This document shows, piece by piece, positions 1 to 17,341 of a DNA stretch of 17,448 nucleotides. This DNA is from a bacterium (GTDB taxonomy: Bacteria; Zhuqueibacterota; Zhuqueibacteria; Oceanimicrobiales; Oceanimicrobiaceae). Location: the NCBI GenBank assembly GCA_046757165.1, contig JBHHXT010000098.1, positions 1 through 17,448 on the forward strand, in the 5' to 3' direction. How positions within the stretch are numbered: the first letter of the stretch is position 1; each line of letters begins with the position of its first letter. A model generated the notes under the pieces. That model was not told the origin of the DNA. It searched no databases and was given only the letters and a program-made list of their open reading frames with translations. The position numbers and the translations under genes are program-made.

Positions 1-160
1 ACGGATTGGCCTGCATCATGATTTCACCTCATGTGTCGAAGTCAGTAGAATGGGGATCGTGTGGCTCATGAATTTTTGGTTTTCACCCAAAATCCGATCC
101 GTGTAAATCCGTTCTATCCGTTAAATCCGCGTTCCATTCATTTGCGGCTTTGTTGCATTA
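1..160 (+). repeat. MITE/REP-like element, copy 1 (cut off by window start)
   Basis: Near-identical to ~6744-6902: ATGTGTCGAAGTCAGT..TGTGGCTCATGAATTTTTGGTTTTCACCCAAAATC.GATCCGTGTAAATCCGTTCTATCCGTTAAATCCGCGTTCCAT plus tail CATTTGCGGCTTTGTTGCATTA, which overlaps the 3' end of the hydrolase gene. Confidence 0.9.
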
Positions 161-1400
161 TGGTCTTGTCGATAAATGTTGCCAGCGACTGATGCTCTAC
201 CGCCGAATTGACCCGCAGCACATTGGACATGAGCGCGACCATGTAAACCTTGCCTTCCGGCTTCTCCACGATGGCCACGGAATTCATATAATTCTGCCGA
301 TTGCCCCGGTACTTGCCACACTTGTACCCCTGCTCTTTTTTGCAGCTATACAAACTGCCAGATTTGAAGTAGACGGCTGACCTGTTCAATCTCGGCGCTG
401 AGGCGTAGCGGATGCGTTTTTCCGTCATGTACAGCAAGCGCTTGAGCTCCAGGCTGGTCCAATCATCCACGACCCGGCCCTGTTCCAGACGCATCAGAAA
501 CATCAGCAAGCCGCGGGGACTGGCATGGCTGCCGCCGCGGGGTACGATTTGTTTGCCGACGCGCGTGAAAAAACTTCCCAAACGCCAATCGCGATCTGCG
601 ATGCCCAGAGCGCGCAGCGGATCGCTCACGACCGAAAGGGCAATCTCCTGCAGTTTTGCCTTCGGCGTCTGATCAAAAAAGGCGCCCTCCGCGGCTCGGG
701 ATGGCGGATAGGCGCGGCCGAATTTGCGCATCAACATGGCCTCTTTCCACACGATGCTGGCCGCCGCGTTGGAGCTGGGAGAGAGCATGTGGTCCAACCA
801 TTCGTACAGCGTAAACCGGTCGCCTGCACGGATAGCCCGGAATTCGACTTTCCGGCTCACAGGGTCAAAGATGGGGACCTTGTGGTGGTCGGTTTGGATC
901 CACCGGTCCGCTTCCACGACACGACTGCGCAGAAGGTAGGTGCGATATTTCACGGAGTCCGGGAACAGCTTCTCGAGCTCGGCGAACATCCCGACCGCAA
1001 TCGCGATTTTGCCGACGCTGCCGGGCTGGTATTGCAACTCAGGGCGCAGCTCAGCATAGCGCATCGGCTGGCCTGGGGTGATCTCCATCAGCGCCAGCGA
1101 GTAGCTCTTGTGCCGCCTGGCGAACAGAGTTTCGATTTGATTTTGCAGCGTGGAATCGATTTGTGGCAACGTGTTCAGCGTTTCCGCTGCGGTCTGGTGC
1201 AAATGCAGTTTGATCTCATCCCAGCGTTTGCGCGCCCCGGCAACCGGAACCCGGCCCTTCAGCTCACCGGCCAGACGCAAACGAAGTCGTTCCAGACGTC
1301 GGATACCGGTGTGCCGATAGCCGTCGACCGGGTAGTAGCCGGATGGCAAAGCCAGGACAAAAAAAAGTGGCAATGTTGTCAGGAATGTTGTTTTGGGCAT
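138..1400 (-). CDS. Exported serine hydrolase, class A beta-lactamase/PBP-like fold
   Basis: 420 aa with a hydrophobic N-terminal signal. The three active-site motifs occur in order: SxxK (PGSVGK, Ser128), SxN (SPSSNAAA) and KS/TG (YFKSGS). Starts 6 nt after the upstream gene's stop. Confidence 0.85.
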   Translation of the reverse strand: MPKTTFLTTLPLFFVLALPSGYYPVDGYRHTGIRRLERLRLRLAGELKGRVPVAGARKRWDEIKLHLHQTAAETLNTLPQIDSTLQNQIETLFARRHKSYSLALMEITPGQPMRYAELRPELQYQPGSVGKIAIAVGMFAELEKLFPDSVKYRTYLLRSRVVEADRWIQTDHHKVPIFDPVSRKVEFRAIRAGDRFTLYEWLDHMLSPSSNAAASIVWKEAMLMRKFGRAYPPSRAAEGAFFDQTPKAKLQEIALSVVSDPLRALGIADRDWRLGSFFTRVGKQIVPRGGSHASPRGLLMFLMRLEQGRVVDDWTSLELKRLLYMTEKRIRYASAPRLNRSAVYFKSGSLYSCKKEQGYKCGKYRGNRQNYMNSVAIVEKPEGKVYMVALMSNVLRVNSAVEHQSLATFIDKTIMQQSRK

Positions 1401-1406
1401 TTGTGT

Positions 1407-4370
1407 TCAATTCAACACTTCATCCAGCGCAATCAGCCGGGTCAAGTCGAGCTCACGGTCGAGGGCATTGAGATAGGCGGAGGAGCGGGCCAGCTTGTTT
1501 TCAACGAAGGGCCGCACCTGGAACAGATAGATTTCCTCGCCCCTGAAGCCCAGCTCGATGTCGAAGGGGCCGTCGGTTTCGATGCCCGGCGTGCCCGGTA
1601 AAACGCGCCGGACTTCCCGGGCAAAGGCGCGCAGTTGTTGCCGCTCCGTTTGGCTCAATATGGGGAGGTCGAACTGCACCGGTTTTTTGGCCACCCCTCC
1701 CTCTTCGGGCAGGTAGTTGCACCAGGGCTCACGCGCCGGGAAAAGCAGGAGATCCTCGCCACTGGCCTTCAACAGGTACGTTTCGGCGGCCTGGCCCTCG
1801 ACCGCGCCGCCGCCGCACCAATTCATCGCCACCAGAATGTCGTCCGGGCTGGAGGTCACCACCCCGCTCGTGATCATGACGCCGGATTTGTCGACGTTGA
1901 CGCTCGGCAACAGCAACAACGACGGGTAGACATTTTCCGGATTGAGCAGGTATCGCTGCCGCCATCTGAAACTCCGCTCGGTAAACGGCGAAGCCCAGAC
2001 TTGCCGGATAGACTGCAAGATGGTTTGCTCGTCTCGTATGTTGAAGGTCGTCAGGTTGAGACCGGCGCCGGTAAACTCGCTGAGATCTTCCATGTTGGTA
2101 TCGCTGCGGATAAAAATGGCGAGCGCGCCCATTTCAACCTCGAACTCGTGCCTGAACCTCGCTCGCAAGGTGTCCACGAAACCGGGCAAAAAACCGATGT
2201 GATGGATCGCATTCCTCAGTTTTTCAAGGCGACCGACGATGTGGGCTCTCACTTCCCGCTCAGGTGCGCCGTTCTTGCGCTCGATTTCTGCTTTGCGGAA
2301 GGTCTGCTGCAAAAACTGCCAGTAAGAGTTGCGCGTCCCGGGAACCATCTGTTCCATGTGCTGCCGAAAGATACCGAACGGAATGACGAGTCCCGGCACG
2401 ACTTTTCCGGGAAACATGGCGCTGAGTTGGCCGAGATTAGCGGCTTTCGGGCCGCAGACGCTGCCGGAATCCTTGGCGCGCAATTCGCTCAGGCTTAGAA
2501 TGTCCGTCTGCTTCAGATCAAGCCGGTCTGTTGGTACCGCTACTCTTTCTGCTGTTCGCTTGCCGTCGGCAACCAGGGCGCGTTCCTGCGCGCTCATCGC
2601 CGAGTCCAGTTTCATGATGACACTACCACGGTGGGAGACGGCAAAAAAAACGGTCTTGCCATCATATTTGCTCAGCTCCCGCAACGTCTGGACGGAAATC
2701 GCTGCGTTCGGAATGCCCAGGTTGCGTGCCAGCAATTGCACGTGCGAGACGGCATTGCCCTCTGAAACGGTCAAGATGCCTGCGACCGGCTTCAGATCCG
2801 AGGGCGGGCTTTGCAGCGCGTAAATCTTGTCCTGCGAAAACTCCATCGCACCAACCGACCCCCTGACCACCCTTAGCACGCCTCTGGCAAATCCGGGATT
2901 CAGACCGCGCACCTGGCCACGTTTCAACACATCGAAAAGGGTGACGCTCAACCCGGAGCGCTGGTCCGAAAGCCGCGACAGTTCGTTCGCCACTCTGCCG
3001 TACGCCAGCAGAATCGAGCTGCGGACGCGGTCGTCAAAAAAGCCGTGTGCCAGGCGCTCGAATCCGGTAAACCGGTCCACCTCACGACCATATACAGCTC
3101 GAATCATGCGCGTGCCCCATTCAACAGAACGGTTGATGGTGGCCACAAGGTCGAGAAACGTCTCTACTGAAACCGAATCGGCCGTTGCGTGTGATTCCAG
3201 CGTCGATTCCAATTCTTGCCATTCCCAGATTTCAAAGAAGCCACACCCGGTAAGCGCTTCTGCCAGCACCCGGGTCTTTTGCACAAGCGCGTGCGGCGTT
3301 CGGGGGCGCCATTCTTCGATATGCCTGAACAACACGGTCTCCGCGTTGTTCAATAAATCCATCAGCAGCAGGCGGCGCTTTGGCGCTTTTTCTGACAGCA
3401 TATGGCTCCGAATGGTCCACAACAGCTCAGCGAGAAGGGTGGCTTCCCTTTTAAAGCTGGAGCCATCTGTGGCATCGTGTGTGGCTCCGTTTCTGGAGGT
3501 GTCGGGTATCGTCAGCAGCCTGGCGAGTGGCCGCCCGACTGGCGTCTCTTCAGGGAAAGGTTCCAGATAGGCGGACAGGCTTTCGATGGTCGCGCCGGTG
3601 TACGCCAAAGCCAGGTCCTGCGCCAGTTGGTCCATTTTTGTGGCGATGGTTGGAGGCATTCGTTGGCGATACTGGCGCCGAAATCTCACCACACGGTCCA
3701 GGTCGGTTTCGTCGGGGCTGCCATGGATTTTGACGCGGATGTCGGTGAACCGGGGCAGGGAGTCAGCGATGGTTTTGGCCAGGGCACGAATTTGTGTCGC
3801 CCTGTCGTCGGTTCCGTCGCGCGGCAGATCTTTTGTAATTTGACGCGCCAGGAAGAAATGCGAGCGAATGACGGCATCCTGTGCCAGCAAGTGGTGCAGA
3901 AACCGCTCCGACCAGGCTGCCTCGTCCTCTGCCTGGTAAGCGCCGCGGTAGTACCTGGCTCGGCGCATGATCCAGCCGTCGGCTGCGGCGTGCAAGAATT
4001 TTTCCACCTGGTATTGTTTCAAACGGGAGTAGTTGTGCTCGACATCCTGGAAGTCTGCCAGCGGTGTGCCGGCCAGAATTTGCCCAAGAAAAAGATGGTG
4101 CTCCGTAGCGAGGGTTTGCACGACATCTTTATGCAACGCGTGCTGAATCCCGCCTGGCTGCGGGCAGCGCTCTTTGGGCGGGAGGACCGAACCGTCCGGG
4201 CAGAACCAGTGGATGCCCTTGAACGGGCCTCTGCGATCCTGCTTGAATGCCTGCACGAATCCGCGCAGTTCTTCAAGGTCGAGCTGCAGTGCGTGTGCTG
4301 CTGGCCATCGGAGAAAAAGCAAGGTGACCAGGATTGTCACGACGGCGCAGGCTCTATGTCGAAGGAGCAT
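1407..4370 (-). CDS. Exported PEP-utilising/dikinase-family protein (phospho-His swivel domain plus C-terminal PPDK-type nucleotide-binding domain)
   Basis: 987 aa; signal-like N-terminus ending AAHA; GAGG RBS; phospho-His motif GILTVSEGNAVSHVQLLARNLGIP (His543); ATP-grasp motifs GPKAANLGQL, IRSDTNMEDLSEFTGAGLN, VWASPF, FDIELG and LFQVRP. Confidence 0.85.
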   Translation of the reverse strand: MLLRHRACAVVTILVTLLFLRWPAAHALQLDLEELRGFVQAFKQDRRGPFKGIHWFCPDGSVLPPKERCPQPGGIQHALHKDVVQTLATEHHLFLGQILAGTPLADFQDVEHNYSRLKQYQVEKFLHAAADGWIMRRARYYRGAYQAEDEAAWSERFLHHLLAQDAVIRSHFFLARQITKDLPRDGTDDRATQIRALAKTIADSLPRFTDIRVKIHGSPDETDLDRVVRFRRQYRQRMPPTIATKMDQLAQDLALAYTGATIESLSAYLEPFPEETPVGRPLARLLTIPDTSRNGATHDATDGSSFKREATLLAELLWTIRSHMLSEKAPKRRLLLMDLLNNAETVLFRHIEEWRPRTPHALVQKTRVLAEALTGCGFFEIWEWQELESTLESHATADSVSVETFLDLVATINRSVEWGTRMIRAVYGREVDRFTGFERLAHGFFDDRVRSSILLAYGRVANELSRLSDQRSGLSVTLFDVLKRGQVRGLNPGFARGVLRVVRGSVGAMEFSQDKIYALQSPPSDLKPVAGILTVSEGNAVSHVQLLARNLGIPNAAISVQTLRELSKYDGKTVFFAVSHRGSVIMKLDSAMSAQERALVADGKRTAERVAVPTDRLDLKQTDILSLSELRAKDSGSVCGPKAANLGQLSAMFPGKVVPGLVIPFGIFRQHMEQMVPGTRNSYWQFLQQTFRKAEIERKNGAPEREVRAHIVGRLEKLRNAIHHIGFLPGFVDTLRARFRHEFEVEMGALAIFIRSDTNMEDLSEFTGAGLNLTTFNIRDEQTILQSIRQVWASPFTERSFRWRQRYLLNPENVYPSLLLLPSVNVDKSGVMITSGVVTSSPDDILVAMNWCGGGAVEGQAAETYLLKASGEDLLLFPAREPWCNYLPEEGGVAKKPVQFDLPILSQTERQQLRAFAREVRRVLPGTPGIETDGPFDIELGFRGEEIYLFQVRPFVENKLARSSAYLNALDRELDLTRLIALDEVLN

Positions 4371-4461: not shown

Positions 4462-4490
4462 TTGACTTTGTGGAATGAACAGAATAAATT
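4462..4490 (+). promoter_or_regulatory. Sigma70-like promoter of the ncRNA candidate
   Basis: TTGACT (4462-4467), 17-nt spacer, TAAATT (4485-4490). Confidence 0.6.
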
Positions 4491-4496
4491 AGCACC

Positions 4497-4722
4497 AAAT
4501 CCTAGAGCGTTTGAAATCCAACCAGGGGGATTTTGAACGGAAGGTGAGTTCCCTGAAACGAAGGAGGTGATCCTATATCTAGCATAGACATAGGAACCTC
4601 CGGAAAAGCACGCTAAGCCAGTTAGGTCACACAATCACTGTCAGCTAACTAGGATAGCAAGACCTTTTCGGAGTTCCAAAGGACGTAGCCCCGCTTCAAA
4701 CAGGAGCGGGGCTTTCTTTTTT
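4497..4722 (+). ncRNA. Structured small RNA candidate (or short-peptide mRNA) with a perfect 16S-complementary SD
   Basis: Bounded by a promoter and an intrinsic terminator, with no convincing canonical ORF. Hairpins at 4508-4539, 4563-4601 and 4593-4677; AAGGAGGTGATCC at 4561-4573. Family not recognised. Confidence 0.6.
4687..4722 (+). terminator. Rho-independent terminator
   Basis: AGCCCCGCTT-CAAACAG-GAGCGGGGCT stem-loop followed by TTCTTTTTT. Confidence 0.9.
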
Positions 4723-4747
4723 GTATTTCCAGGCGAACGATTTTTTC

Positions 4748-4776
4748 TTGACAAAATAATTTCATATATCTATATT
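4748..4776 (+). promoter_or_regulatory. Near-consensus sigma70 promoter
   Basis: TTGACA (4748-4753), 17 nt, TATATT (4771-4776). Confidence 0.8.
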
Positions 4777-4916
4777 CGCGAAGCTTAGCAAACGTCACAA
4801 GTCTCGGTCAGGCCATTCTTTCTCGAGCCCTGTTCTTGGCGCTCTTTGTGCAAACTTTGCGAAATAAGCTTTTGGTTCCGGCCTGTCCGGGTTGAGGAGT
4901 TGACTTCGGAATTGAA

Positions 4917-5141
4917 GTGAGTCGCAAGAATACCTCCTTTTCCGGGGAAAAAGACAGGCAGACGCCTGCCGGTGCAGAAGAAACCACCGAGCGCAGCAGG
5001 AACCGCGTCGACTCAGACGAGAGGCTTTCTGATGAGCTGAGATACTGGCAGGAGCTGTATGAAGACGATGAGCCGGAGATCAAATTCCGCGAACGGCGTT
5101 TCCGGGGAAAAGGAAAATTCAAAGACACAGAGTTCGAATAA
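4917..5141 (+). CDS. Small highly charged hypothetical protein (74 aa)
   Basis: Only sizeable plus-strand ORF between the 4748 promoter and the 5177 terminator. GTG start is uncertain because GAGGAG at 4894-4899 is distant. Confidence 0.55.
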   Translation: MSRKNTSFSGEKDRQTPAGAEETTERSRNRVDSDERLSDELRYWQELYEDDEPEIKFRERRFRGKGKFKDTEFE

Positions 5142-10558: not shown

Positions 10559-11302
10559 ATGAAACATCCCCTTTGTTTCGCTTTCTATTCCGCTTTGTTC
10601 GTCATTCTGTTGTCCTGCCAGGATTCCATCGAGCTGGTCGACCTCTCCAGTCCGGGCGAAGTCATCGAAGACCCGGAGGGAGATGACAGTGGCGATACTG
10701 GAAATGACGACCGGCGGATAATCATCACCGACCGCACCGGCAAAGAATGGGACATCACGCACGCGGTCGAGAAGTACGGCTTCGACCCTGGCGGTTTTCA
10801 GTTTGGTCTCGGGCCCGATGCCATCAAGCCGATAACAAATCCCCGCATGCTGTGCCCGGGTGACGACGGCTACCCGGAAAACGAGGATGGCTCGCTGATC
10901 ATGGGCGTGGAGCTAAATGGGTTGACGCGTGCCTACTCTCTGGCAATCATGAGCCGCCATGAGGTGGCACTGGAACAATTTGCCGGCACTGATGTCGCGG
11001 TGGCCTACTGACCGCTGGTGCGCCTGGCTGCCGTGTACAGCCGCGTCATCGACAAACAAACCCTTACCCTTGCCTCCAGTGGCTGGACTTATCGCAATAC
11101 CTTTGTGCTCTATGACCACGAAACCGAAAGCATGTGGTATCACCTGGCAGGCCAAAACGGCTTGACTTGCATCAGCGGGGCCTTTGCAGACAGAGAGTTG
11201 CGCGAATTTGAATCCACCGTTACCCGTTGGTCGAACTGGTACAGAGCGCATCCTGAGACAAAGTATCTCGACCCGCAGTCTACGGTTGCCTCTGAAAAAT
11301 GA
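10559..11302 (+). CDS. DUF3179-like lipoprotein, probable selenoprotein (UGA 11009-11011 read as Sec)
   Basis: ORFs 10559..11011 and 11018..11302 share a frame and join as DVAVAY-U-PLVRLAAVYSR. DUF3179-like motifs lie on both sides (GVELNGLTRAYSLAIMSRHEV; SGWTYRNTFVLYDHETESMW; WSNWYRAHPET). Lipobox LLSC; AGGAAG RBS. Confidence 0.8.
11017..11050 (+). promoter_or_regulatory. SECIS-like hairpin
   Basis: GGTG-CGC-CT-GGCTG-[CCGTGTA]-CAGCC-GCG-T-CATC; the G-containing apical loop begins about 20 nt after the UGA. Confidence 0.6.
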
Positions 11303-12200
11303 ACCCAATCGAATAGATCGTCCCGGCCACTGTATTCTTCCCGGCATAAATGTGCAGCACTTCGCCTTGAACCGCCCACTTGCTCGTCAATCGATAAATG
11401 AGCGAAGGGCTGATCTTGAAGATGTCCTGGTCGCCGACAATGATATTGGGTAAGGCACCGCCGCCACCCGGCAATGGCGAAACCACCGGCTGGCCCACCA
11501 GGTCCGGCGGGGCAATTGTGCTCATCAGCGCGTCCACCGTGACCTTGATGAGAAATCGCCCTGCGGTATACCCGGCCTCGGCAGTGGCCAGGAGCTGATC
11601 GTGCAATTCATTCGTGCGGTGGCGGTAGCCCACACTGCCTGTCAAGTAGGCGGGCAGAGGATACAGGCTCTTGCCCACAAGCAGGTGACCTTCAAAATCG
11701 ACAACGCCGGTGCCCAGTGGTGCGCCATCGTCCGATGGCTTCTCTTCATATCCCAATGGCAGTTTGAGTCCGCCTTGCAGGGAGAGGGCGAAAGAGCCAT
11801 TTAGCAAGGCAAACTTTCCGAGAAGACTCAAGTCCGACAGTCCAATTGTATAGAGGGTTGCAATCCTTGCCAGGGCGCCGCCACCGATAATCTCGGTGCG
11901 CCTGGAGCGGAGAACTTTGAACGGCAAGGTTCCGACGATGGTCAACCGGTCGGAGAGACCGTATTCAAAATAGGTCGAAACGCTGAAATCTCGAAATGAG
12001 GTCTCCTCATAGATGATTCTTTCCTGGAAGATATCGAGGCGGTCCCCGTTGTGGTCAAATTCCTGTGTCGAATGGAGATAAGCTGAGGATAGTTTGAAGT
12101 ACAGGCCATGTTTGTGTTGCGGCCAGGCGCCGGCGCCTGCCCGCTCTGCTAGCAGCAGGAGCGCGGCCGAAGAAATAAGCAGTGAGATTCGCCGATTCAT
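11280..12200 (-). CDS. Putative outer-membrane beta-barrel protein
   Basis: 306 aa; signal peptide ending AGA-GAW; alternating amphipathic strands (STYFEYGLSDRLTIVGTLPF, ALSLQGGLKLPLGY, AYLTGSVGYRHR, YSIGFIF). Its 3' end overlaps the DUF3179 gene by 23 nt. Confidence 0.75.
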   Translation of the reverse strand: MNRRISLLISSAALLLLAERAGAGAWPQHKHGLYFKLSSAYLHSTQEFDHNGDRLDIFQERIIYEETSFRDFSVSTYFEYGLSDRLTIVGTLPFKVLRSRRTEIIGGGALARIATLYTIGLSDLSLLGKFALLNGSFALSLQGGLKLPLGYEEKPSDDGAPLGTGVVDFEGHLLVGKSLYPLPAYLTGSVGYRHRTNELHDQLLATAEAGYTAGRFLIKVTVDALMSTIAPPDLVGQPVVSPLPGGGGALPNIIVGDQDIFKISPSLIYRLTSKWAVQGEVLHIYAGKNTVAGTIYSIGFIFQRQP

Positions 12201-13085: not shown

Positions 13086-14033
13086 ATGACGAGGTTTGAT
13101 TCGAAATACTGGGCCCTGATTTTGGGCGGCTCGAGTGGATTCGGGCTGGCAACGGCAAAGAAACTGAGCCGTCACGGCATGAATCTTTGCCTCGTTCATC
13201 GCGACCGCCGGGGCGCGATGAAACGCATCGAGCCTGAATTCGAGGAGCTGCGACAAACCGGCGTCCAGGTTCTGACGTACAACGTCAATGCTTTGACTCA
13301 TGAGGGCGTGGCGGAGGTTTTGGATGGCCTGCAGCAAACCATGGCAGACTCCGACTCGGTGCGCATGCTGCTTCATTCTATCGCCTATGGCAATCTGAAA
13401 CTGCTCTCGCCAACCCATCCGGCCGGCCTGGAGAGCCACCGACACCTGATCGGCAAACTGGGACAGGAGCTTGGCATTGCGCCAGATTCGCTGCAGGCGG
13501 CTTTTGATAAGCTGTTCGATGAAGGCAGCGAAGCGCTTGCGGGCATTGCCTCGCCGCCGCGCTACAACAGCGAAGACCTGCTGCAGGATGAAGATTTCGC
13601 GCTCACGATCTACAGCATGGGCAGCAGCCTGGCAACCTGGGTGCAGGAGGTTTTCAAACGGAACATGTTTGCCGAAGACGCGCGCGTCCTCGGTCTGACC
13701 AGTGAAGGCAATGAGGTGGCCTGGAGAGGATATGCCGCCGTGTCCGCCGCCAAGGTGGCGTTGGAGGCCATTGCCCGCGCCATTGCCGTCGAGTATGCGC
13801 CCTATGGCATCCGCGCCAACATCATTCAAGCGGGCGTCACCGACACGGCAGCGCTGCGCCTGATACCGGGCAACCAGCATCTCAAAGCTGCCGCGAAATT
13901 GCGCAACCCGTTCAATCGCATCACGACGCCAGAGGATGTTGCCAATTTTATCTATCTCATGTGTCTGGATGAAGCCGCCTGGGCCAACGGAAATATTATT
14001 CGCGTCGATGGCGGTGAGCATATTGGTGGGTAG
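13086..14033 (+). CDS. SDR oxidoreductase, probable enoyl-ACP reductase (FabL/FabI type)
   Basis: ALILGGSSGFG Rossmann motif, Y-x6-K (YAAVSAAK), YGIRANIIQAGVTDT and NGNIIRVDGG; at 315 aa it is long for the family. Confidence 0.85.
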   Translation: MTRFDSKYWALILGGSSGFGLATAKKLSRHGMNLCLVHRDRRGAMKRIEPEFEELRQTGVQVLTYNVNALTHEGVAEVLDGLQQTMADSDSVRMLLHSIAYGNLKLLSPTHPAGLESHRHLIGKLGQELGIAPDSLQAAFDKLFDEGSEALAGIASPPRYNSEDLLQDEDFALTIYSMGSSLATWVQEVFKRNMFAEDARVLGLTSEGNEVAWRGYAAVSAAKVALEAIARAIAVEYAPYGIRANIIQAGVTDTAALRLIPGNQHLKAAAKLRNPFNRITTPEDVANFIYLMCLDEAAWANGNIIRVDGGEHIGG

Positions 14034-14034
14034 T

Positions 14035-15030
14035 ATGATGTACATTCACGGCCTGGGTCACTTCCATCCCGACAATGTCCTGGACAACCAGTTCCTGGAA
14101 GATCTCGATATCGGCACCAACGACGAATGGATCCTGGAACGCGTCGGCATCCGCACGCGCCGTACCGTTCTGCCGCTTGATTATATCAAGGAGACCCGCA
14201 ACCAGGACACCCGGGCCGCCATCGAGGTTTCTGAATACAGCAACGCACGTACCGGCAAGGTCGCCGCCCAACGGGCGCTGGAGCATGCGGGCATTACGGC
14301 GAAGGACATCGGCATGGTCATCGCCGGCGGCTGCTCCCCTGACACGGTCACGCCGGCCGAAGCCTGTACTGTCGCCTGCGAGCTCGGTATCGAAGCTCAG
14401 GCCTTCGATTTGAATTCTGCTTGTTCAAGCTTTGGTACACAAATTCATTTTCTCTCGCAAATGAATCCGGACGCCTTGCCAGATTTTGTGCTGCTCGTTT
14501 CACCCGAAAACAACACCAGAACGGTCAATTACAACGACAGAAACACCGCCGTGCTCTGGGGCGACGGCACCAGCGCAGCCGTCGTCTCGACGCGTGTTCC
14601 GGCCAGGGCGAAGATCGGGTTCAGTACTTTGACTTCCAGCCCAAAAGGGTGGGACAAAGTGGTGATTCCACGCCTGGGGCACTTTTCTCAGGAAGGAAAG
14701 ACCGTGCAAACCTTTGCCATAAAACGCACCGTCAAGTGCTTTCGGGAGATTGAACAGAAGACCGCCGGCCAATGCGAGCGGTTGTTGTTTATCGGCCACC
14801 AGGCAAATTTGTGCATGCTCGAATCGGTTTGTGAAAGATGCCACATCCAACCGGAAAACCATTTTTACAACGTCGACACCTTTGGCAATACCGGCGCCGC
14901 CGGAGCGCCCACTGTCCTCAGTCAAAACTGGCAGACCTTTCGGCCGGGTGACGTCGTCGCCCTGATCGTTGTCGGGGCAGGACTCACCTGGTCGAGCATG
15001 ACGATCGAGTTTGGGAACCATGACCTATAA
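14035..15030 (+). CDS. fabH: Beta-ketoacyl-ACP synthase III-like protein
   Basis: WILERVGIRTRR, catalytic Cys in FDLNSACSSF, WGDG, HQAN, GNTGAA and GAGLTW. ATG 14035 lies 1 nt after the SDR stop. Confidence 0.88.
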   Translation: MMYIHGLGHFHPDNVLDNQFLEDLDIGTNDEWILERVGIRTRRTVLPLDYIKETRNQDTRAAIEVSEYSNARTGKVAAQRALEHAGITAKDIGMVIAGGCSPDTVTPAEACTVACELGIEAQAFDLNSACSSFGTQIHFLSQMNPDALPDFVLLVSPENNTRTVNYNDRNTAVLWGDGTSAAVVSTRVPARAKIGFSTLTSSPKGWDKVVIPRLGHFSQEGKTVQTFAIKRTVKCFREIEQKTAGQCERLLFIGHQANLCMLESVCERCHIQPENHFYNVDTFGNTGAAGAPTVLSQNWQTFRPGDVVALIVVGAGLTWSSMTIEFGNHDL

Positions 15031-15622
15031 AGAATTTCTTGCGCGCGACCATTTTTCCAAGCAGGAGCTGCTGGCGCTCGCCTACGGCACGCTGGTGAGC
15101 GATCCACCGGCTGAATTCAGCCGGCTGCCGACGCCGCCGATGCTCATGTTCGACCGGGTGCTCGAGCTTGAAAAATATGGCGCAAAGGGCACAAAAGGAA
15201 AAATGGTCGCGGAAAAAGATGTCCAGCTCGACGATTGGTTCTTTCAGTGCCACTTTGACGGCGATCCGGTGCAGCCCGGATGTCTCGGCGTCGACACCAT
15301 CTGGCAATTGCTCGGCTTGTACTGCATTTGCTGTGGCAGTGAAGGGCGTGGCCGGGCCTTGGGGTGCAAAGAAGTTTTTTTCGATGGGCAGATTCGACCG
15401 CACAATCGTCTGGTCCGGTATGAAATCGACGTCAGGAGATATACGGTTTTGCAGGGCGGCAAATCTTCAATCGTCATCGGATCGGGGAACGTCCTGGTGG
15501 ACGGCGAGCTGATCTACACCATCAAAGACGCGAAGGTGGGCATCTTTACCGGCATCGCTTATCCGGACTATCCATTGCCGTCAAAAAACTCAGTCGGCGG
15601 CATGATGAAAAGGGAAGGATGA
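15020..15622 (+). CDS. fabA: 3-hydroxyacyl-ACP dehydratase/isomerase, FabA type
   Basis: LPTPPMLMFDRV, WFFQCHFDGDPVQPGCLGVDTIWQLLG (His plus the FabA-type Asp), GRGRALG and DGELIY. Confidence 0.88.
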   Translation: MTYKEFLARDHFSKQELLALAYGTLVSDPPAEFSRLPTPPMLMFDRVLELEKYGAKGTKGKMVAEKDVQLDDWFFQCHFDGDPVQPGCLGVDTIWQLLGLYCICCGSEGRGRALGCKEVFFDGQIRPHNRLVRYEIDVRRYTVLQGGKSSIVIGSGNVLVDGELIYTIKDAKVGIFTGIAYPDYPLPSKNSVGGMMKREG

Positions 15623-16083
15623 AGCCACTCACAAAAGACCAAATCTTAGACCTGATCCCGCAGCAAAGCCCGTTTCGGTTTATCGATGAAATCCTCGAGG
15701 TCAACGAAGAGTCGATCGTGTCCACGTACACCTTCCGGGATGACGAAACATTTTATGCCGGTCATTTTCCCGGCAACCCGATCACACCGGGAGTGATCTT
15801 GCTCGAAACTCTGGCGCAAACGGGAGTCGTCGCTTTTGGCATCTACCTCGCCTCCCTGCAATTCACCCAGGATGAAATCAAACGTTTCCTGACCGTCTTT
15901 ACAGAAGCCAACGTCGAGTTTACCGGGTTCGTGCGGCCGGGGGATCGCGTCACGATTCGGGCAAAAAAAATCTATTTTCGCCGTATGAAACTCAAGTCCG
16001 AAGGCGAGCTCATGCTGGCCGACGGCAAGGTTGTCTGCAGCGGCACCATCGCAGGAATGGGAGTGAACGTCAATGAAAAATAG
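15619..16083 (+). CDS. fabZ: 3-hydroxyacyl-ACP dehydratase, FabZ family
   Basis: IPQQSPFRFIDEI and FYAGHFPGNPITPGVILLETLAQ (His/Glu); ATGA overlap with fabA. Confidence 0.85.
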   Translation: MKPLTKDQILDLIPQQSPFRFIDEILEVNEESIVSTYTFRDDETFYAGHFPGNPITPGVILLETLAQTGVVAFGIYLASLQFTQDEIKRFLTVFTEANVEFTGFVRPGDRVTIRAKKIYFRRMKLKSEGELMLADGKVVCSGTIAGMGVNVNEK

Positions 16084-17341
16084 AGTTGTCATCACCGGTC
16101 TGGGGATCATCGCGCCAAATGCCCACGGACTCGAAGCCTACGAAGCCGCCTTACGAGGCGGCAAGAGCGGCATTCGCTTCATCCCGGAGCTCGAGCGACT
16201 GAAGTTCGGCTGTCAGGTCGCCGGGGTGCCGCCAGACCTGGACGAAATCAGCGCCAGGTATTTCACGGAAGAGCAATTGCTGGCAATGAATTCGAGTATC
16301 AAATATGCTTGTATCGCCGCCATCGATGCCTGGCGGGACGGCGGCTTCGAAGTGCCGCACCAGGACTCCGACGTGAACTGGGAGACTGGAGCGATCGTTG
16401 GTACGGGCATCGGTGGTATGGATACCATTGCCGAACGCCTCGTGCCTCTGGTCAACGAAAAGAAAGTTCGTCGCCTTGGCAGCACCATCGTGGAGCAAGT
16501 CATGGCGAGCGGCGTGTCGGCAAAAATAGCCGGACTGCTGGCGCTCGGCAACCAGGTGACCACCAACAGCAGCGCGTGCAGCACCGGCACCGAGGCCATC
16601 CTCGACGCCATGTACCGGATCCGCAACGGCCTGGCACAACGCATGCTGGCAGGCGGCGCAGAAGGGGCCTCTGTTCACATCTGGGCCGGCTTTGATGGCA
16701 TGCGGGTTCTCAACCGCAAGCACAACGATGCGCCGGAAAGCGCGTCACGGCCGATGAGCGCCAGCGCGGCCGGGTTCATCCCGGGTGCCGGCGCCGGAAT
16801 CCTGATGCTGGAAAACCTCGAAGCTGCACAACAGCGCGGCGCCAGAATTTATGCCGAAGTCTTGGGAGGCGCGATCAACTGTGGCGGTCACCGTCTCGGA
16901 GGCTCCATGACCGCACCCAATCCGCAAGGCGTGCAGCAGTGCATCCGCACAGCCCTGGCAGACGCGGCCATCTCCGGCGACGAGGTCGACGCCATCAACG
17001 GCCACCTCACTGCCACGTTTGCCGATCCTCACGAAATCAAGAACTGGGCCCGGGCCCTGGGCGTCACGCCGGAGACCTTTCCCCTGACCAATGCCACAAA
17101 ATCCCTGGTCGGCCATTCCCTGGGCGCGGCCGGCGGGCTTGAATCTGTCGCATGCGTGCTGCAAATTTACAAAGGGTTTGTGCACGGCTCGGTCAACTGT
17201 GAAGACCTGCACGAAGAGCTCTTGCCATACGCGGAACGCATCGTGCAAAAGACCCGAGAAACGCCGGAATTGCGCGTCCAGGCCAAGGCCAGTTTTGGAT
17301 TCGGTGATGTCAATGCGTGTGTTTTGTTCAAAAAATGGTAA
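16073..17341 (+). CDS. fabF: Beta-ketoacyl-ACP synthase (FabF/FabB family)
   Basis: RVVITGLG, catalytic Cys in SSACSTG, NGHLTAT, TKSLVGHSLGAAG and SFGFG. FabF versus FabB cannot be resolved by eye. Confidence 0.85.
   Translation: MKNRVVITGLGIIAPNAHGLEAYEAALRGGKSGIRFIPELERLKFGCQVAGVPPDLDEISARYFTEEQLLAMNSSIKYACIAAIDAWRDGGFEVPHQDSDVNWETGAIVGTGIGGMDTIAERLVPLVNEKKVRRLGSTIVEQVMASGVSAKIAGLLALGNQVTTNSSACSTGTEAILDAMYRIRNGLAQRMLAGGAEGASVHIWAGFDGMRVLNRKHNDAPESASRPMSASAAGFIPGAGAGILMLENLEAAQQRGARIYAEVLGGAINCGGHRLGGSMTAPNPQGVQQCIRTALADAAISGDEVDAINGHLTATFADPHEIKNWARALGVTPETFPLTNATKSLVGHSLGAAGGLESVACVLQIYKGFVHGSVNCEDLHEELLPYAERIVQKTRETPELRVQAKASFGFGDVNACVLFKKW

Follow-up and report, generated by a model that had tools for sequence, protein, structure and literature searches.

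In a 17,448-nt stretch of bacterial DNA (assembly GCA_046757165.1, contig JBHHXT010000098.1; here called the window), positions 4497..4722 hold a short RNA unit that combines a long complement of the 16S rRNA 3' end with two competing folds. The initial annotation, whose sequence features are all present at these positions, read it either as a start-less decoy for 30S subunits or as a tightly gated micropeptide mRNA like those of type I toxin-antitoxin systems; a start codon with its reading frame and a 5' hairpin and pseudoknot domain had escaped it. Comparison of homologs resolves the element into a single-copy gene with a 5' hairpin-pseudoknot, an extended Shine-Dalgarno sequence (SD), a weak start codon one nucleotide after GGAGGUGAUCC, and a frame of 13–15 codons.

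The Transcription Unit and Its Surroundings

Both signals of the proposed unit of about 225 nt were located by a promoter and terminator scan. A sigma-70-like promoter (TTGACT-17-TAAATT) lies at 4462..4490 on the plus strand, with a predicted transcription start near 4497, and the intrinsic terminator (4687..4723, plus strand) consists of a hairpin of 11 pairs (4687-4713) followed by a T run. A TTGAC is found at the same place in most homologs of the family, a loose promoter pattern occurs upstream of 81 of 126 homologs compared with 22 of 217 control windows, and a hairpin and T run stand behind all 18 of the 18 aligned homologs. The 226-nt strand has a minimum free energy of −80.4 kcal/mol (z −4.67), a value reached by none of 200 shuffled sequences. 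The Rfam search that the initial annotation had advised placed no known family over the element: a scan of the whole window returned four matches at E ≤ 5, none of them at this position. 6S RNA (RF00013) was considered and rejected, as the only 6S-like match of the genome is on another contig and fits better (C18:30233-30413, L031; a probable 6S RNA at 42.4 bits, just under the Rfam cut-off of 46.4).

The unit sits between a divergent gene for a PPDK_N-domain protein and a second unit, promoted separately, that leads to proS. On the minus strand (138-4370), the former specifies a protein of 987 aa whose start resembles a signal peptide, and it is followed by a gene for a 420-aa protein lacking a Pfam match; homologs of the 987-aa protein also flank the RNA at loci L002 and L015. 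On the other side (4748-5141, plus strand), a strong promoter-like site (TTGACA-17-TATATT) and a leader of about 135 nt precede a charged, 74-codon ORF with a GTG start, for which no Pfam match was found. This ORF contains ACCTCCTT (4932-4939), complementary to the SD core of the small RNA, and the sequence TTCCGGGGAAAA is repeated within it at 4940 and 5100. No extended DNA match to 4748-5141 was detected in 20 family genomes, and a piece of its leader of about 50 nt recurs at 8 other places in the same genome. Further along the plus strand, a DUF3179 gene (10559-11347) appears to be interrupted by a stop near 11011, its frame resuming at 11018-11302, possibly reflecting a readthrough codon or a broken gene. 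The region 13086-17341 (plus strand) carries a fatty-acid-synthesis-like cluster (SDR/enoyl reductase, FabH-like, two FabA-like dehydratases and a ketoacyl synthase).

Distribution of Homologs

Clear homologs were found within the family by BLAST against 61 related genomes. A first covariance model, built from 17 family homologs, matched 17 of the 21 family genomes, strongly and once each, and these include 13 of the 13 of good quality. With a broader model there were 36 strong matches (one of them in an unpublished genome, G132) and two weak ones in 133 genomes of the phylum, and matches were present in 57 of 74 Nitrospinota genomes, in 6 of 151 genomes of a phylum sample around a Chlorobiota-labelled carrier, and in 4 of 151 genomes of a gammaproteobacterial sample, one of the four being false (the centre genome is counted in both samples). 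A pattern scan of GTDB genomes returned at least 119 loci; among the 119 listed, 96 scored E ≤ 1e-4 with the first model (61/80 and 35/39), 4 more were accepted by eye, and 19 were chance matches. The record titles of members, from which the taxon labels are taken and in which single bins can be mislabelled, name KSB1, Caldithrix/Calditrichota, Nitrospinota, marine Gammaproteobacteria, Bacteroidetes, Chlorobiota, Fibrobacteres and Lentisphaerae. The best-scoring named matches include KSB1-labelled records, the gammaproteobacterial carriers are Pseudohongiella, OM182 and Azotimanducaceae, and a Nitrospina isolate record also holds a member (L097). The comparative data indicate that the element is a genuine, conserved RNA gene, and its distribution, to judge from the broader-model counts in Nitrospinota and in the Chlorobiota-centred and gammaproteobacterial samples, is broad but patchy.

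Several candidates were set aside. Four weak model matches (L049, L070, L071 and L333) look false. A loose SD pattern applied to 61 genomes of the phylum was too unspecific to define members: among 12 places that it returned, 11 had an SD match at ordinary start sites or by chance, and none was a member. A plasmid search with one Nitrospina-type homolog gave 9 records, all with terminator-sized chance pieces only, and one pattern run on viral contigs gave two matches, both ahead of long ORFs and neither of them a member. Degenerate members also exist: L389 is without the P1/pseudoknot domain described below, L119 is without the strand that pairs with the SD (anti-SD), and in L110 the anti-SD is weakened; all three retain the SD, the start and the short frame.

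An Extended Shine-Dalgarno Sequence with a Weak Start Codon

The extended SD (4560..4573, plus strand) has an invariant core, and its 13-mer AAGGAGGTGATCC (4561-4573) occurs only once in the 6.09-Mb genome. The initial annotation called this an exact complement of the 16S 3' end. Against the 16S rRNA of relatives it forms 13 Watson-Crick pairs, or 14 with one G-U; the comparison is confined to relatives because the organism's own 16S 3' end is absent from the assembly. Perfect runs of 13–15 nt were seen in five genomes that hold both RNAs. The duplex with a relative's 16S tail is calculated at −26.1 kcal/mol, compared with about −16 for either of the internal duplexes that the RNA can form.

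It was also claimed that no ATG follows at the normal spacing. Strictly, that holds, but the AUA at 4575, one base after GGAGGTGATCC, opens a conserved frame of 13 codons that runs to a TAA at 4616 (4575..4616, plus strand; ISSIDIGTSGKAR as read from the DNA, with Met as the first residue if initiated). Ordinary genes of the phylum show the same geometry of SD, one nucleotide and ATG. The frame was followed through 127 homologs (128 collected, less one from an unpublished genome), which share ancestry, so that the counts are not independent events. A start-type codon is present at the +1 offset in 125 of them and 1–2 nt later in the remaining two, while offsets −3 to 0 and +2 have one in only 0–3 of 127. 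The codons used are ATC (48), ATT (39), ATG (18), ATA (9), TTG (9) and GTG (4); the first base departs from A only if the third is G, and the third from G only if the first is A, which is the set of start codons. Among 36 further model-found homologs, 34 have ATG or TTG at this offset, one ATC and one CTC. The frame is 13–15 codons long in 125 of 127, ends in TAA (61), TAG (50) or TGA (16), and has the anti-SD strand in frame in 117 of 122 homologs despite insertions of 3 or 6 nt.

These counts bear directly on the idea of a purely non-coding RNA that captures or stores 30S subunits and in which the frame is incidental. The very strong SD duplex would suit such a role, as would start codons that are the weakest ones, and a start-less mutant of rreB, a mini-mRNA with a comparable SD, still pellets with ribosomes (PMC5711450, in its accessible part). 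However, a start-type codon at a fixed offset, an anti-SD kept in frame, and three different stops at codons 14–16 are together difficult to account for unless the frame is decoded in the P site and terminated. With start, frame and stop conserved in nearly all homologs, we consider this explanation improbable, and the start-less form of the decoy finds no support.

The gene infC appears, by eye and by SD spacing, to start with ATC in this genome (C52, L423) and with ATT in several relatives. A correspondence between the start codon of the RNA and that of infC was looked for in 10 genomes, several of them unclear, and no correlation was seen; Nitrospina infC appears to start with ATT, and the Nitrospina RNA uses ATG or TTG.

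Two Mutually Exclusive Folds

The hairpin that hides the SD was correctly recognized in the initial annotation, except that its coordinates were off by one base. This fold A (4563..4601, plus strand) pairs 4563-4581 with 4585-4601 and covers both the SD and the start codon, leaving the SD's first three nucleotides unpaired as a possible toehold. Fold B (4593..4677, plus strand) is as originally given: the anti-SD strand (4593-4608) pairs with an SD-mimic strand (4664-4677) and encloses two further stems (4612-4615/4655-4658 and 4620-4625/4645-4650). The anti-SD strand is common to both, and the two folds are mutually exclusive. Across 49 short-form homologs from different clades, 98.6% of the cells of fold A are paired and 3 of its 10 pairs have changed on both sides. 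For fold B, 14 family sequences give 94.5% paired cells and two-sided changes at 5 of 13 pairs; the 49 short forms give 88.7%, and among them one pair is C-G in 22 and U-A in 21. A change that weakens fold A to a G-U pair is matched on the 3' strand of fold B. In 62 of 108 homologs the duplex between the anti-SD arm and the 3' region is stronger than in all 40 shuffles (median z −3.1). Compensatory changes among the homologs thus support A and B alike.

Folding was computed for 113 of the 127 homologs (the others were 6 truncated or divergent sequences, 7 in which no terminator was called and 1 in which no anti-SD was), and the energies take no account of pseudoknots or the ribosome. Fold A is predicted in 113 of 113 shortened transcripts, and 73 of the full-length RNAs favor B and 36 favor A. 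The prediction for the window's own RNA is that fold A dominates (probability 0.97), B lying about 7 kcal/mol higher. The distance from the start to the codon at which stem B opens is 18–24 nt in 124 of 124 homologs.

The 5' Domain

Upstream of the SD is a hairpin, P1 (4508..4539, plus strand), of 12 bp with an 8-nt loop, in which two-sided changes are seen at 11 of the 12 pairs and 92.6% of cells are paired (17 sequences). Its loop sequence CAGGG (4523-4527) can pair with CCCTG (4551-4555) to give a pseudoknot, PK1 (4523..4555, plus strand), which ends 5 nt before the SD 13-mer. A PK1 duplex of at least 5 bp is available in 88 of 91 distinct model-found homologs, in registers chosen by script of which a few lie in P1. 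Its four core pairs are 100% paired in 49 sequences, and compensatory variants occur as CTGGG/CCCAG (1) and CCGGGG/CCCCGG (4). Members found by pattern cannot test PK1 because the search pattern fixed those bases. Taken together, covariation supports P1 and PK1 as well as folds A and B.

In the short-form homologs, the stop codon lies in a 7-nt loop that can pair with the 5' end of the RNA. Among 49 of them, GCUG faces UAGC in 20, and GUUG or GUUA faces UAAC in 14. The support for this contact is good in Nitrospina and moderate in the KSB1-type short form; in the gammaproteobacterial set there was none, with a mean of 2.65 Watson-Crick pairs compared with 2.47 in cross-clade swaps. In the window's family, where an insertion alters the region, the contact may be replaced by a pairing of the 5'-end CCTAG (4501..4505, plus strand) with CTAGG at 4649-4653. 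This is 88% paired by cells in 14 family sequences, without compensatory change, and four short-form homologs have neither CCTAG nor the 3' partner stem. Controls with a slid partner were far lower in all pairing counts.

Expression and Gene Neighborhood

Transcription is weakly hinted at for one marine homolog, L118, part of whose stretch occurs in at least 20 sequencing runs. In two runs from two metatranscriptome studies (X6 and X8), depth is present in only 3 of 30 bins within 2.6 kb, and identical contigs span 1975-2133 and 1988-2130, the predicted RNA lying at about 1974-2165. This evidence consists of unstranded contigs from runs chosen because they contain L118, with no DNA control, and uncovered stretches in these runs are no proof of silence. 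Contigs were confined to the RNA in 2 of 4 runs examined; the other two (X3 and X15) cover flanking genes too and are uninformative on the RNA ends.

The neighborhood raises the possibility of a cis-acting leader or attenuator, for instance of ferritin. At 13 of 17 family loci (L001-L016, L018) a ferritin gene is found no more than 1.5 kb from the RNA, mostly just downstream on the same strand, and it is often followed there by a gene that we take to resemble phosphoglycerate mutase. In this genome, however, ferritin is on another contig (C200), and a promoter-like site of its own precedes the downstream gene; no ferritin gene was near the RNA at any of 19 loci from the phylum's other families, which reduces the link to gene order within one family. 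At 49 other loci the neighbors are unrelated, and at 29 of 48 the longest of the downstream ORFs converges on the RNA. The RNA is best not taken as a leader since neither fold disrupts the terminator, and we regard such a role as very improbable.

Peptide or Act of Translation

The inferred peptides often begin M-S or N-S, retain a G-A/T-S core and in many cases end in Cys. That the 13–15 residue peptide is the functional product, with the folds, long SD and weak start serving only to keep its synthesis low and conditional, is a possibility that we rate as fairly unlikely. In its favor are the retention of frame and length across phyla, the recurrent termini and core, the survival of G-A-S through synonymous changes in L143 and L331, and 12 synonymous variants where 6 were expected in the gammaproteobacterial set; the RreB and RreR peptides are likewise reported, in the available part of PMC5711450, to be conserved within their own clades. 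The synonymous excess is, however, absent in Nitrospina (1 variant, 2.7 expected) and marginal in the family (5, 3.4 expected) and in other phylum sets (8, 6.1 expected), where it is no better than in other frames. The G-A-S core is moreover dictated by the anti-SD strand, and residues 4–7 and 11–14 vary freely between clades. Selection at the amino-acid level thus appears weak, and for this reason the act of translation probably matters more than the peptide.

A type I toxin mRNA with a hidden antisense antitoxin is extremely unlikely. Its SD would be sequestered and could be released by refolding dependent on the 3' end, and a 5' pseudoknot before the SD is loosely reminiscent of tisB (PMC7708055, accessible part). 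Against this, the 13 residues are mostly polar and hydrophilic and form no membrane helix, the gene is present in one chromosomal copy per genome, the plasmids and viral contigs searched yielded no member, and the promoter scan showed nothing promoter-like on the minus strand from the element as far as the next terminators of that strand, near 4953-4999. The toxin-antitoxin analogy of the initial reading is not supported. A tightly gated micropeptide mRNA, the other half of that phrase, comes near the mark; the two-fold RNA is upheld by covariation, and a 30S-binding character would follow by analogy with rreB.

A Proposed Mechanism

The reading we favor, with moderate confidence, is that of an rre-type mini-mRNA on which ribosomes dock, and whose main output would be ribosome engagement and not a folded protein; it may park ribosomes or sense their state. 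Fold A would form during transcription and cover the SD and the start. Once the 3' SD-mimic strand had been made, the RNA could switch to fold B, aided by a 30S subunit at the free GAA(A) toehold. About 40 nt (the SD, the start and the first 6–7 codons) would then be unpaired between PK1 and stem B, roughly one initiation footprint; the edge of an initiating ribosome is reported at +17, in a source accessible in part, and stem B, at 18–24 nt after the start, would be just beyond it. An SD helix of 13–15 bp together with a weak start (AUA/AUU/AUC, GUG or UUG) would slow the passage from 30S complex to elongation, and the RNA would be found mostly on 30S subunits, as is rreB. Now and then a ribosome would translate the frame, unwinding stem B and terminating at the stop inside it, after which the RNA would refold into A or decay. 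In this way the state and lifetime of the RNA would signal how far initiation-competent ribosomes are available, and might also buffer their supply. Several points speak against docking as the main output: fold A is the predicted preference of the window's own RNA, rreB overexpression had no growth effect (PMC5711450, accessible part), the start codon does not track infC, one member has CTC, and the distribution is patchy.

A more elaborate version, which we offer tentatively and think unlikely, is an RNA that cages the ribosome. PK1 and the 3' stem would bracket exactly one initiation site in fold B, the pair between 5' end and stop loop would close a ring around the mRNA channel of the 30S subunit, and only translation completed to that stop would open it. 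If true, such an RNA would be the equivalent of a hibernation factor, or an inbuilt check on how faithfully translation is initiated, by which 30S or 70S particles in slow-growing bacteria could be stored and released by the RNA's own translation.

Whether docking or caging applies, the RNA has separately mutable parts (the pseudoknot, the SD-mimic strand, the contact of 5' end and stop loop, and a natural series of six start codons), so that the roles of peptide, act of translation and ribosome binding could be told apart in it. It also offers a compact substrate for structures of the 30S initiation complex on a near-cognate start.

Comparison with Known Systems

The closest known RNAs are the rre mini-mRNAs, for which we found one study, on Alphaproteobacteria only (Hahn et al., RNA Biol 14:1353, PMC5711450; accessible part). 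There, rreB has a 17-nt complement, a GTG start and a hidden SD, co-sediments with 30S subunits, is weakly translated and is stabilized by removal of its start codon; 20-fold overexpression did not affect growth, and simple sequestration of ribosomes was judged unlikely. Like rreB and rreR, the present RNA is predicted to be a stand-alone transcript of 165–230 nt, and it shares with them (G)AAAGGAGGUGAUCC, one base and a weak start codon, often with Ser second, a frame of 13–18 codons, an SD in a hairpin with a few free 5' bases, and neighbors that are not conserved across clades. Set beside the defining features of rre, the short ORF immediately after the extended SD is present (13 codons at 4575-4616), as is the hairpin over SD and start with a few free 5' bases, whereas the perfect 16S complement is 13 nt (14 with G-U, against relatives' 16S) instead of at least 16, and the start is ATA instead of GTG (ATG in Azospirillum).

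Other differences set it apart. Its 5' domain of about 60 nt contains a hairpin and pseudoknot, and the upstream pseudoknot pattern was found in none of 149 alphaproteobacterial-type loci; it uses mainly AUC, AUU and AUA starts; a covarying SD-mimic strand gives it a second fold; some clades pair the 5' end with the stop loop; its 16S complement is 13–15 nt, in contrast to 16–17 nt in rreB/rreR (PMC5711450, accessible part); and its peptides are unrelated to RreB and RreR beyond M-S. In these comparisons, the 14- and 18-codon types were equated with rreB and rreR on the basis of length and start codon. The accessible text of PMC5711450 makes no mention of a pseudoknot, or of the words alternative or switch, and that of PMC10117765 and PMC13285730 no mention of rre. 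No paper on this RNA variant was found in a literature that included few subscription journals; the supplement of PMC5711450 was outside the search and may list further rre genes. By analogy, the RNA would be expected to work like an rre mRNA, and its sequence features suggest a new variant of these, neither rreB nor rreR. A relationship by descent is plausible because some alphaproteobacterial copies have a similar anti-SD, GGAGCAGCCTC.

Two Rfam families listed as non-coding share the design. In an Rfam scan of 20 homolog loci all matches were sub-threshold, with CC2171 (RF01867) in 7 at 20–41 bits; the window scored 14.7 bits (C98:4551-4713) and the best homolog 41.3, below the cut-off of 75. 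These matches led to alphaproteobacterial-type RNAs with SD, one nucleotide, start and Ser, and short frames, which fit the rre genes as described in PMC5711450. The CC2171 consensus opens with SD, one nucleotide and GUG UCU, and 113 of 119 metagenome loci with its motif (L197-L315) have frames of 13–29 codons; for these reasons CC2171, a Caulobacter sRNA validated by Northern blot in Methylorubrum (bioRxiv 10.1101/2022.01.24.477521, accessible part), appears to be an unrecognized rre mRNA. It differs from the window's RNA in its 3' structure, in a promoter directly before the SD and in having no pseudoknot. The actinobacterial Ms_IGR-5 (RF02471), merely listed in the accessible part of PMC8079986, has an extended SD and then, by eye, a 12-codon frame in two genomes (L431, L432); here the ATG is 5 nt after the SD and no 5' pseudoknot domain was seen. 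Its model (cut-off 45 bits) had no match at E ≤ 0.5 in this genome (G000) or in two other carriers (G138, G139). The sequences suggest that both families are rre-type mini-mRNAs. Separately, in a sample of 201 genomes from the class to which an Alphaproteobacteria-labelled record belongs, 29 have an extended SD, one nucleotide and ATG or GTG, and 28 of the 30 matches (L390-L419) open frames of 18–35 codons, usually M-S, directly behind a promoter-like site and a CAAC-rich leader.

Among protein genes, infC and the S. aureus cvfC1 and ccpN also join an extended SD to inefficient AUA/AUU initiation, and in S. aureus extended SDs support such starts at about 10% of AUG efficiency (PMC13009471, accessible part), but these are ordinary protein genes and not free-standing, switchable mini-mRNAs. 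The variant described here places the rre design in several unrelated phyla, including ocean nitrite oxidizers and marine Gammaproteobacteria.
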